From positions 1 through 27,144 of IMG/VR virus record IMGVR_UViG_3300003375_000114: a stretch of DNA of 27,144 nt. The stretch is one strand, 5' to 3'. A program made the position numbers and the translations under genes. Of this stretch, positions 9,018 through 15,150 are shown one piece after another. The first letter of the stretch is position 1. The number at the start of each line of letters is the position of its first letter. This DNA is from a virus (lineage: Duplodnaviria; Caudoviricetes). Below the pieces are notes generated by a model. That model was not told where the DNA came from. It worked only from the letters and a program-made list of their open reading frames with translations, and made no database searches.

Positions 9018-9881
9018 ATGACATTAGATTCATTACCACAAGTACCGCAATCTCACATCAAAGCAATGGAAAAAAAAGCGCAAGAGCTTATGGCAAAAGA
9101 TGGAATTGAAAATGTTCCTGTTGAAGTAGCACCTATTGAACAAAAACACCCTATGTTGCAGCATCAAGAAGAACCGGTTGTGCAAGATGATCCTGAAGAG
9201 CAGGAACATGAAGAAGAGCAAGTAGTTGCAGCTTCCGCACCACAAGAAACTCCTCAACAAATGAATTTTAGAATGATTCGTGAGCGAGCAGAGCGAGCAG
9301 AACGTGAACGTGATGAAGCAATGAAATACGCTATGTCATTTAATCAACAAAAATCACAGCAAAAAGTAGCAGATCTTGAAGATGATTATTCAGATATTGG
9401 TTTAGATGATGACAGTTTAGCTGAAGGGAAGCATTTAAAAAAAGTGCTGAAAGAAATGCGTGAAATGAAAAAAGAGTTACAATCATATAAGACGCAAGCA
9501 ATCAGCGACACTGTTGAAATTAAATTAAAAACACAATTTCCTGATTTTGATAAAGTAATTACTACTGAAAACCTTCAGTCATTAAGTAATATTAATCCTG
9601 ATCTTGCAGATATGATTAGCCAGACACCAGATCTTTATAAACGCGCTAAATTAGCATACGACATGGTTAAACAATTAGGTATTTATAAAGATCGTTCTTA
9701 TGAACAAGAAAAAATTGTTGCTCAAAAGAATGCAGTAAAACCCCGTCCATTGACATCTATTTCACCACAACAAGGAGATACGCCTTTATCGAAAGCAAAT
9801 GCATTCGTTAATGGTCCTTTAAGCAAAGATTTAAAAGATCAAATGTATAGAGAAATGTTGGCTTCTATGAAAGGTAGATGA
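9018..9881 (+). CDS. Putative capsid scaffolding protein
   Basis: Acidic disordered N-terminus, coiled coils, position between portal and capsid. Confidence 0.65.
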   Translation: MTLDSLPQVPQSHIKAMEKKAQELMAKDGIENVPVEVAPIEQKHPMLQHQEEPVVQDDPEEQEHEEEQVVAASAPQETPQQMNFRMIRERAERAERERDEAMKYAMSFNQQKSQQKVADLEDDYSDIGLDDDSLAEGKHLKKVLKEMREMKKELQSYKTQAISDTVEIKLKTQFPDFDKVITTENLQSLSNINPDLADMISQTPDLYKRAKLAYDMVKQLGIYKDRSYEQEKIVAQKNAVKPRPLTSISPQQGDTPLSKANAFVNGPLSKDLKDQMYREMLASMKGR

Positions 9882-11056: not shown

Positions 11057-11307
11057 ATGTTTAAACATTTCAAACCAATTAATGATAATGTTCTTGTTGA
11101 GCTCATTGAAAAAGAGAAAACAACAACAGGTGGCATTATTATTCCTGATCAAGCACAAGAAAAAACTTCGCAAGCAGTTGTCGTGCATCCTGGAAAATCA
11201 GAACAGTTAGTTCAAGGTGATCGTGTATTCTTTAAAAAATATATGGGAACATCACTTGATACACATCATTTGGTATTAAAAGAAGAAGATATTTTGGGCG
11301 TTTTGTA

Positions 11308-11308
<1 letters not shown>
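11057..11308 (+). CDS. groES: Co-chaperonin GroES (short)
   Basis: FKPINDNVLV, mobile loop TTGGIIIP, GDRVFF, LKEEDILGVL. Confidence 0.93.
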
Positions 11309-13120
<1,812 letters not shown>

Positions 13121-13201: not shown

Positions 13202-13204
13202 ATG

Positions 13205-13275
13205 ACCCCCATAACTTAATTGGTAAATCTCATTTCTAGAGGATGAGCATGCGAGTTCGAGTCTCGTTGGGGGTC
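13205..13275 (+). tRNA. tRNA-like element / pseudo-tRNA, ambiguous anticodon (TAG or CTA)
   Basis: Acceptor ACCCCCA/TGGGGGT, TA at 8-9, D-loop AATTGGTA, T-arm GCGAG-TTCGAGT-CTCGT; weak D-stem, atypical anticodon loop, no encoded CCA. Confidence 0.6.
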
Positions 13276-13290
13276 ATCATGATTTTATTC

Positions 13291-13320
13291 TTGCGCATTC
13301 TTTTTACTTTTTTTTATACT
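13291..13320 (+). promoter_or_regulatory. Sigma70-like promoter for the capsid operon
   Basis: TTGCGC-18 nt-TATACT; predicted start near 13327. Confidence 0.6.
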
Positions 13321-13326
13321 ATCATC

Positions 13327-13420
13327 AACGTAATTCATAGAGTCGTGCTCTATACCCATTTTTAGGCGTATATATGAATTTCGCCAATTCAAAGACGTAT
13401 ATAAAAGCCCCGTCAGCTTT
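13327..13420 (+). ncRNA. Candidate structured leader: three 27-nt pseudoknot units
   Basis: RRCGTA-N4-stem6-YCGYS-stem6 at 13327, 13365 and 13394 with compensatory changes. Confidence 0.65.
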
Positions 13421-13457
13421 AAGTTGTTATTGTATAAATCACGCTTAAGGAAATAAT

Positions 13458-13769
13458 ATGTCAATTACTACTACAAGTATATTGCCAGCACCGGTGCAAC
13501 AAAGCTTTAGTTATAAGTTATTGTCTGTGCCAGTGCCAAACATGATCCACAAGATCCCGGCAATGTTAAAAGTTATGCCAAGAAATGGTGGTACAACTCT
13601 TCGTATGAGAAGATATAATCCATTGCAAACAGCTATGGTACCACTAGGAAATTCTGGTGTAACACCTCCAGCTCAAAACCTAACTGCAATCGATATCGAT
13701 GCGCAAATTTCATTTTATGGGACTTATGTTCAGTTGAATGAACAGGTGACATTGCAAAACCAAGACCCT
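13458..13769 (+). CDS. Major capsid protein (N4-gp56-like), exon 1
   Basis: MPRNGGTTLRMRRYNPL...GVTPPAQNL...YGTYV; ends ...LQNQDP at the predicted 5' splice site. Confidence 0.88.
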
Positions 13770-13824
13770 AAAATGAATGGGGTCGTTAAATTTTCTCTAA
13801 TTGACTTGGAAACCGTAGTGGCGT

Positions 13825-14334
13825 TTAGCTAACCGGTGACAGGGCCGAAGGATTTTTTAAAGGATGTTCATGATAGCGCGAATTAAGATTTTTCATTTCA
13901 CTCAACAGTTCAAGTCGTTTGGCGATAATTTCGTCGGACAATCTTTTGCTGCCAATATTTTTGGAAGTGAGGCGATATCTCTTCATTACGTCGCATTGTT
14001 TTTTTTTGATGATAAGATATGGTTCGACCAAGGGCAGAATGTAATCCAACATTGGTCCAGTTGCTTGCCAATTATAAACTGGTCTTGTGAAAGTTTTTTT
14101 GCTAGTCCATCTATATCTAGAATCTTTAGAACCACCAAAAGTATCTTCAAGCCATATTATAAGTTCCTCATCGCAGCTTGTTATTTTAAGCATGCTATGC
14201 CATTGAAGACCGTTGCCATATTTGCCTTGTTTAACATGACCCAAATACAAGCAACCTTCTCCATCAATAAGGCCTGCAAGATAAGCGATTTGAGCAATAT
14301 TATGATTTGTAATGAATTTAACTATTTTACCCAT
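13825..14334 (-). CDS. LAGLIDADG homing endonuclease (single motif)
   Basis: YLAGLIDGEGCL, ILPLVEPYLIIKKKQ; GAAAGGA RBS on minus strand. Confidence 0.92.
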   Translation of the reverse strand: MGKIVKFITNHNIAQIAYLAGLIDGEGCLYLGHVKQGKYGNGLQWHSMLKITSCDEELIIWLEDTFGGSKDSRYRWTSKKTFTRPVYNWQATGPMLDYILPLVEPYLIIKKKQCDVMKRYRLTSKNIGSKRLSDEIIAKRLELLSEMKNLNSRYHEHPLKNPSALSPVS

Positions 14335-14355
14335 GAATATCCTTTCATTTATAAT

Positions 14356-14364
14356 AGTATAGCA
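14356..14364 (-). promoter_or_regulatory. Extended -10 promoter for the endonuclease
   Basis: TGCTATACT on minus strand about 22 nt upstream of ATG. Confidence 0.55.
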
Positions 14365-14514
14365 TTAAATGAAAATAAAATCCACGGTGAACGACTAAGT
14401 GAGAAAACTCCATTTTATGGGGATGCGATAGTCTGACCTCTGGAGGAAACCCAGAGAGGCGAATCCGAAGAGGTTTGCCCGCCATAGAAATATGGTCATA
14501 AAAGTAACAGAATG

Positions 14515-15150
14515 GTTCTCAATGAATGTGCAGCTCGTTTAGGTGTGTCATTACGCCAAACAGAAGATCAGTTAACACGTGATATGTTAGCTTCAACTGC
14601 TTCATTTATTAACTGTACAGGTGGTGTTAATGGTGATAACCCTACAGAATTAACTCGTTCAGATGTTGATACTGTTGTTGAAGCATTAGTTGGTAACAAT
14701 GCTTATACAATTATGGATAACATTGAAGGCGAAGATCGTTTTGGAACAGCGCCAGTTCGTGATGCTTATTTTGCATTATGTAACTCAGCATTGATTGGAA
14801 ATTTTGATAACGTAAACGGATTTATTAATAAATCTCAATATCCATCTCCAATGAATGCATTGCGTTCAGAATGGGGTGCTATTGGTAATTTACGTTTCTT
14901 AATTTCATCAATTGGCTCTTCAACATTAAATGCATCAGCTTTAGGGCAAACTGTATATAATATCTTTTGTGTTGGTATGGAAGCGTATGCTTGTATCGAA
15001 CAAGATGGTTATTCAGCTTCATTCATTTATAGACCGCCAATATATGATGGACCTTTAGCGTTAAACGCAAGTGTTGGATATAAATTTGCTGAAGTTCCAA
15101 GAATCACTAATGATCTTTGGGTATTCAACTTACGTTGCACATTAGCTTAA
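14515..15150 (+). CDS. Major capsid protein, exon 2 (spliced product 315 aa)
   Basis: VLNECAARLG...EDQLTRD, EWGAIGNLRF, GPLALNASVGYK. Confidence 0.88.
   Translation, partial: VLNECAARLGVSLRQTEDQLTRDMLASTASFINCTGGVNGDNPTELTRSDVDTVVEALVGNNAYTIMDNIEGEDRFGTAPVRDAYFALCNSALIGNFDNVNGFINKSQYPSPMNALRSEWGAIGNLRFLISSIGSSTLNASALGQTVYNIFCVGMEAYACIEQDGYSASFIYRPPIYDGPLALNASVGYKFAEVPRITNDLWVFNLRCTLA

Follow-up and report, generated by a model that had tools for sequence, protein, structure and literature searches.

The window analysed here, a 27,144-nt phage sequence, carries three similar 27-nt units in tandem directly before its major capsid gene, which raises the question of what such an array does in a capsid mRNA leader. 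All three units lie on the plus strand. Unit 1 (13327-13353, with a model score of 16.2 bits) can pair 13328-13330 with 13344-13346 (P1) and 13337-13340 with 13350-13353 (P2). In unit 2 (13365-13391, 26.2 bits), P1 joins 13365-13368 to 13382-13385 and P2 joins 13375-13378 to 13388-13391. The corresponding arms of unit 3 (13394-13420, 21.6 bits) are 13394-13397 with 13411-13414 and 13404-13407 with 13417-13420. The U of a putative U-turn is found at 13343 in unit 1 and at 13381 in unit 2, and unit 3 has a C at this otherwise nearly fixed position. An earlier reading made from the DNA letters (the sequence-only reading) had placed the three units at exactly these coordinates and at 37 nt from the capsid ATG at 13458. 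Folded as simple hairpins, single units of the window showed modest stability (z from -1.8 to -2.3) with a tool that cannot score pseudoknots. Two isolated model matches elsewhere in the window, at 5754 (minus strand, antisense in the portal gene, 14.3 bits) and at 14026 (plus strand, inside an intron, 8.2 bits), are probably due to chance.

The array is preceded by a predicted promoter on the plus strand (13291-13320) that consists of a -35 box TTGCGC (13291-13296), an 18-nt spacer and a -10 box TATACT (13315-13320), placing +1 at about 13327. That the array begins at the start of this promoter had already been proposed; the boxes are present at the expected sites, and the first base of unit 1 is the seventh base after the -10 box. 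This promoter was absent from the output of a strict sigma-70 scan of the window. Of 102 related leaders, 74 have unit 1 starting 5-8 nt past the best -10 match, so that the array probably starts at the predicted transcription start; T, T and G are enriched at positions -36 to -34. No terminator-like site was found between the array and the capsid start, and a role in antitermination was therefore set aside. The position at the predicted +1, together with the constant proximity of the units to the 5′ end of the capsid-carrying transcript, would suit a structural element that acts independently of any ligand. In that case the knots would guard the 5′ end of the capsid-encoding mRNA against decay, and their folding kinetics would determine the rate of translation.

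A search with capsid exon 1 detected 582 relatives, spread over 592 candidate stretches; 80 of these were retained, and 18 more were taken from genomes. An untrained pseudoknot descriptor was applied to 85 dereplicated upstream regions and found 196 units, compared with 17-23 in 10 dinucleotide-shuffled sets. Further controls gave 13 matches for the first 180 bases of coding sequence and 45 for the reverse strand. With a model trained on the descriptor units, 226 units were found in 76 of the 85 regions, compared with 1.5 in shuffles. The units thus recur upstream of homologous capsid genes, where the sequence-only reading had proposed to look for them.

To describe the fold, 306 units from 102 leaders were measured, none of which had been preselected by motif scan. 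From 5′ to 3′, the consensus reads N-N-C-G, Y-A, a variable linker, a purine-rich P2 arm, N-N-U, C-G-N-N, N-N and a pyrimidine-rich P2 arm. The conserved fold comprises P1 (4 bp), a Y-A step, P2 (3-4 bp) and a 9-nt loop with a U-N-R turn. Stems of 6, 6 and 5 bp, as originally described, can be drawn in the window; across relatives, the conserved stem is only 3-4 bp and its two inner pairs are not conserved, because the loop closed by P2 has 9 nt (NN-U-4 nt-NN) in 216 of the 306 units. The predicted pairing of the loop with the 5′ end of its own unit stood up well: P1 is fully Watson-Crick paired in 266/306 cases within a unit, compared with 151/644 across units. The U-N-R sequence is kept in 300/306 units, even where P1 changes. 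Since anticodon-like U-turns obey a UNR rule, the loop fits an anticodon-like U-turn that presents four bases to its own 5′ end. In the capsid leaders of four relatives (L009, L018, L027 and L060) the innermost P1 pair is flipped in all copies of one phage, and the identity of the bulge and of the Y also tends to match within one phage.

Covariation was scored on 38 units of one shared geometry. All seven core pairs change on both sides and 98.5% of the cells pair. Because a pairing model had been used to choose the units, the pair counts lean towards structure, and the descriptor counts in shuffled leaders given above serve as the independent control. The covariation score was reached by 0/500 shuffles, and no slid register came near it. 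The sequence-only reading had made its case depend on covariation in related capsid leaders; the two-sided changes together with the descriptor counts argue for the structure-conserved RNA array that it had suggested at the 5′ end of the capsid mRNA.

The earlier statement that the units belong to no known family was borne out by the covariance models of Rfam 15, none of which matched at E≤10 in the window, at E≤5 for 20 loci or at E≤2 for 15 loci. Resemblances to known elements were weighed nonetheless. Tandem compact pseudoknots recall the ToxI antitoxin decoy, which the sequence-only reading had named, the order of P1 and P2 recalls the core of the fluoride aptamer, and the inverted 4-mer in each unit is reminiscent of a DNA operator with dyad symmetry. 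ToxI repeats are near-identical direct repeats upstream of toxN, whereas here both stems differ between the units of one array, the downstream gene encodes a capsid protein and no ToxI model matched. Between its P1 and its pseudoknot arm, the fluoride riboswitch carries an inserted hairpin and a conserved 3′ segment, and it accompanies a fluoride-related gene. These features are absent here, where only 1-3 nt separate the 3′ arms of P1 and P2, and Rfam gave no match. Against a DNA operator, two crossed helices covary, the spacing of the dyad halves varies, and G-U exceeds A-C on the sense strand (30 vs 14 in the 306-unit set). An explanation by a ToxI-like decoy, a fluoride riboswitch variant or an operator is therefore very improbable.

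Unit 3 is also connected to the translation start. The 3′ arm of its P2 is part of a predicted anti-Shine-Dalgarno (anti-SD) hairpin (13417-13450, plus strand), in which 13417-13420 pairs with 13447-13450 of the capsid Shine-Dalgarno (SD) sequence TAAGGA (13446-13451, plus strand), in competition with P2. The predicted hairpin has a free energy of -7.4 kcal/mol when the arm is free, compared with -2.2 kcal/mol when unit 3 is locked, and locking lowers the calculated energy for opening the SD from 4.6 to 1.2 kcal/mol. Releasing the arm of the last unit costs at least 2 kcal/mol in 70/137 leaders, compared with 17-23 when it is replaced by arms from units other than the last. In leaders that had not been preselected, an overlap at this threshold (at least 2 kcal/mol) was observed in 46/102, and a run of at least six pairs from the last-unit arm into the SD was observed in 48/96, compared with 18.7 ± 2.9 for shuffled partners (0/1000). 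The arm-SD helix covaries across relatives, with several pair types at positions 3-6. Half of the capsid leaders do not show the overlap by the run test, which would suit a stabilising element; some of these are missed last units. A clade of 13 loci (L199, L201, L211, L212, L219, L221, L228, L230, L236, L240, L246, L249 and L255) has a different conserved SD-proximal stem, which follows the last unit without overlapping it and lies in the last 65 nt before the capsid ATG.

The placement of the units was compared with gene order in 121 loci for which the scaffold start as well as the capsid leader was included in the fetched DNA, after near-duplicates and truncated loci had been dropped. In all 100 loci with the capsid gene apart from the scaffold gene (gap of 161 nt or more), of which 22 came from a motif scan, units are present in the capsid leader, and only two of them (L162 and L204) also have units at the scaffold start. 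In all 21 loci in which the scaffold gene abuts the capsid gene (gap of 59 nt or less), the units are found at the scaffold start and none precedes the capsid. In 25/25 scaffold-capsid operons, the distance from the end of a unit to the scaffold AUG is 8-20 nt, and in 21/25 a second unit begins at +15 to +26 from the scaffold start. Seventeen units from the in-frame region were scored; both helices are kept through amino-acid changes and covary inside coding sequence. On an unrooted FastTree tree of 120 scaffolds, the layout label changes four times. No anti-SD switch was detected in the scaffold-start layout, where the SD opening energy, calculated with units locked or free, showed no consistent direction. 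In five near-complete genomes, arrays are present at the capsid leader only, which accounts for 18 of 27 matches, the other nine being scattered singletons.

The two loci with units at both sites, L162 and L204, might be intermediates or recombinants. Single matches near the start of a gene of about 150 aa that precedes the scaffold gene (L035 and L041) look like coding coincidences and were rejected. A second conserved element of a different kind was seen by eye in six scaffold-capsid operons (L089, L090, L093, L097, L197 and L208). It lies upstream of the unit, some 60-110 nt ahead of the scaffold ATG, and consists of an outer stem that encloses a short hairpin whose loop resembles GCGTA.

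The unit also occurs outside this capsid family. A motif-only scan of viral contigs returned 91 loci, 88 of them in a capsid leader or at the 5′ end of a scaffold gene. The loci divide into 77 capsid leaders (72 assigned by tblastn and 5 by inspection), 11 genes in scaffold position and 3 sites elsewhere. The 11 scaffold-position matches are located inside the 5′ part of genes from six lineages; two of these genes encode scaffolds of phrog_8865, and another three are followed by major-head genes. Two further motif scans gave 57 loci, with 37 at head-gene sites (21 scaffold starts and 16 capsid leaders, including that of a P22-coat-family gene, L336); the 20 singletons elsewhere were treated as chance. 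The unit is thus common to at least three capsid families (phrog_1357, 283 and 9953), and one scaffold match precedes a 14242 capsid.

As an independent test, the frozen model was applied to 55 dereplicated loci (80 fetched) of an unrelated head family whose seed capsids match phrog_9953. Units were found within -60 to +250 of the scaffold start in 41/55 loci. This region yielded 81 matches in 17 kb, compared with 85 in 466 kb elsewhere, a 26-fold increase over background, and the 81 matches fell to 0-4 after codon shuffling and to 6-11 after synonymous recoding. In 31/55 loci the unit starts at -12 to -4 and embeds the scaffold AUG. The cultured Rhizobium phage RHph_N65 carries three candidates in its scaffold 5′ end (7.4, 12.2 and 12.9 bits). 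The unit is not universal among scaffold genes. A first set of annotated or related scaffold starts was positive in 1/13 loci (L275, 12.1 bits; the L274 ORF in this set is not a scaffold), and a second set in 1/9 evaluated (RHph_N65; the start of L347 is doubtful). In P22 gene 8, no clear unit was found, the best candidate scoring 9.1 bits and thus lying below background matches of 16-17 bits.

Placement, fold, covariation and the covarying competing SD helix identify the unit as a real, widespread and uncatalogued RNA element. They also bear on the ligand-independent stabiliser. Units that embed the scaffold AUG or sit at +15 to +200 inside coding sequence are not explained by nuclease blocking alone, one of the functions that the sequence-only reading had suggested. 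Moreover, no arrays occur at other late genes in the five genomes, and the conserved unpaired bases (Y-A and U) and the competing SD helix suggest a fold that is recognised and can be switched. We therefore regard pure stabilisation as unlikely. Among the suggested functions, protein-binding sites for the control of head proteins fit best. The anti-SD hairpin overlapping unit 3 and the copies on scaffold start codons of other phages had been missed by the sequence-only reading; both point to the scaffolding protein as the ligand, and to activation of the capsid gene rather than repression.

A candidate for this ligand is encoded in the window. The ORF at 9018-9881 (plus strand) belongs to a family that adjoins the capsid gene in relatives, and profile and fold matches make it likely to be the head scaffolding protein. 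HHalign gave 90% to annotated scaffolds over a short stretch of 18 columns, and phrog_8865 was matched at E 0.043. A structure model of the protein matched 'Scaffolding protein' entries in Foldseek at E about 6e-4, while a fold search of the PDB with this model returned nothing at E≤0.001. A basic helix lies in the N-terminal part of the predicted protein (about residues 79-125). In Pfam, neither the capsid exons nor the 9018-9881 protein had a match. No unit was found at the start of the 9018-9881 gene.

Correct procapsid assembly depends on the coat-to-scaffold ratio. We put about an even chance on the unit being a binding site for free scaffolding protein that would switch the capsid gene on here and the scaffold gene off where units lie at the scaffold start. 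By default, the 3′ arm of P2 in unit 3 is predicted to pair with the SD and to keep the capsid gene off. Locking of the pseudoknot would withdraw the arm, free the SD and turn the capsid gene on. Free scaffold that is not taken up into procapsids might bind to this tandem array, probably as an oligomer and with cooperativity, and thereby supply the energy for locking, so that capsid protein would be made in step with spare scaffold. In scaffold-capsid operons, where the units bracket or embed the scaffold ribosome-binding site, the same binding would keep ribosomes from initiating on the scaffold gene. With either wiring, a surplus of scaffold relative to coat would be corrected. The simplest candidate for a single ligand with these opposite effects, more coat and less scaffold, is the free scaffolding protein, and P22 offers a precedent for it. 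As in autogenous translational operators, a conserved structure lies at the translation start of the regulated gene. Several observations run counter to this scheme: 98 loci have units at the capsid only, with a scaffold gene that carries no such operator, the anti-SD overlap is present in only about half of the capsid leaders, with a different stem in the L199 clade, P22 gene 8 has no candidate above background, and most of the annotated scaffold genes examined gave no unit. The wider proposal, a portable 27-nt scaffold-protein aptamer used by several unrelated head families in two opposite wirings, with the capsid ON array arising several times, is put forward more tentatively, at somewhat below even chances.

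The same homeostatic logic would apply if free coat protein bound the unfolded unit and destabilised the knot, switching the capsid off as the anti-SD hairpin forms and the scaffold on as its AUG is released. In its favour, the units always follow the capsid-bearing transcript. Binding of coat is nevertheless quite unlikely, since the unit is not confined to one capsid family but common to at least three, since conservation centres on the folded form, and since the known precedent concerns scaffold and not coat (bioRxiv 10.1101/2022.12.13.520362). Another ligand altogether, such as a phage late regulator, a host protein, or a small molecule or ion in the manner of a riboswitch, would agree with an architecture of aptamer plus expression platform. 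It would also agree with a co-evolution test of protein residues against the motif, which showed no link to columns of scaffold or capsid exon 1 (mostly ties, with 4-9 independent pairs, among the results listed) and did not separate the competing explanations. On the other hand, the simplest explanation for opposite polarity at two partners in a single step of assembly is ratio sensing, and motif scans and the five genomes place the unit on head genes only, scattered singletons being treated as chance. Such a ligand seems improbable to us, to the same degree as coat protein.

Control by free scaffold would place the unit among autogenous operators. Wyckoff and Casjens reportedly described translational autoregulation of the P22 gp8 scaffold in 1985, and to our knowledge gene 8 is the only scaffold gene shown to autoregulate. 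Scaffold autoregulation has thus been on record since 1985, and the available parts of the literature searched define no RNA site for it. A preprint describes post-transcriptional control of the gp8 gene, likely by its own free product (bioRxiv 10.1101/2022.12.13.520362). The candidate scaffold of the window resembles gp8, as far as the latter is described there, in its predicted layout of a disordered N-terminus, long helices, a small bundle and C-terminal helices, although profile similarity to gp8 is not detectable. In contrast to gene 8, which has no clear unit, the window has a defined RNA fold, located on the capsid leader and with a predicted ON wiring.

Two pseudoknot operators are closer in structure. 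In the gene 32 leader of T4, T2 and RB69, a pseudoknot upstream of the ribosome-binding site is bound by the phage protein when it is in excess over its main ligand (PMC3014915). That leader, as described there, has a single knot with a long A+U tract and serves repression only, on a replication gene, whereas here 2-6 tandem U-turn knots lie on head genes and are predicted to be wired both ways. In Escherichia coli rpsO, S15 binds the pseudoknot form of a start-site region that can alternatively fold as a hairpin, the two forms being in competition, and thereby balances assembly stoichiometry (PMC3985624). The rpsO knot, on the same account, is larger, single, repressing and unrelated in sequence; the units here are minimal and tandem, with a predicted activating version. 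By analogy, the unit would work like these autogenous pseudoknot operators while belonging to no Rfam family, and may represent an operator of this kind with an activating form.

GP20 is a scaffold-type protein. Candidate cis-regulatory RNAs precede phage GP20 genes (GP20-a, GP20-b and related motifs of 72-107 nt; PMC10690425). The models of GP20-a (RF02991) and GP20-b (RF03003) do not match the units, and no Phage_GP20 Pfam match was found in the capsid exons or in 9018-9881. The unit is not described in the parts of the literature that were searched; supplementary material of Weinberg 2017 (PMC5737381) or Fremin 2023 (PMC10690425) could hold an overlapping candidate. If the proposed control is correct, the array would act as a natural ON switch that senses a protein and sets the stoichiometry of coat to scaffold. 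It offers a minimal, covariation-backed candidate site in several head families, with a predicted ON version on capsid genes, and candidate units are also present in the cultured phage RHph_N65. The question becomes accessible to reporter and binding assays, and a unit of 27 nt able to function in both polarities would also be of use as a regulatory part.

The surroundings of the array have several features of their own. The 27-kb record encodes a terminase, a P22-like portal and GroES/GroEL. The capsid gene (13458-15150, plus strand) is of the N4-gp56 type (phrog_1357; TIGR04387, each exon below the cut-off). Its exons, 13458-13769 and 14516-15150 (both plus strand), give a spliced product of 315 aa. 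They are separated by a predicted group I intron (13770-14515), for which the exon ends in U and the intron in G and for which Rfam gave no match. An antisense ORF inside the intron (13825-14334, minus strand) is of the LAGLIDADG endonuclease type (PF00961, E 2.3e-4, just under the gathering score). Eighteen genome bins hold a relative of the window, five of them assigned to Chlamydiae, Babeliales or Legionellales and the remainder scattered; we infer that these are mis-binned phage contigs. The phage-encoded GroES and GroEL genes (11057-13120) lie directly upstream of the capsid transcription unit, and the end of a similar gene is visible in L038. Just upstream of the capsid promoter, a tRNA-like element (13204-13276) is atypical in being called Leu-TAG without a long variable arm. 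Any tRNA was present in only 4/60 loci scanned, and two of the closest relatives have odd and differing tRNAs in the same place (L001, 3660-3759, and L004, 3737-3807; SeC-TCA and Ser-TGA).
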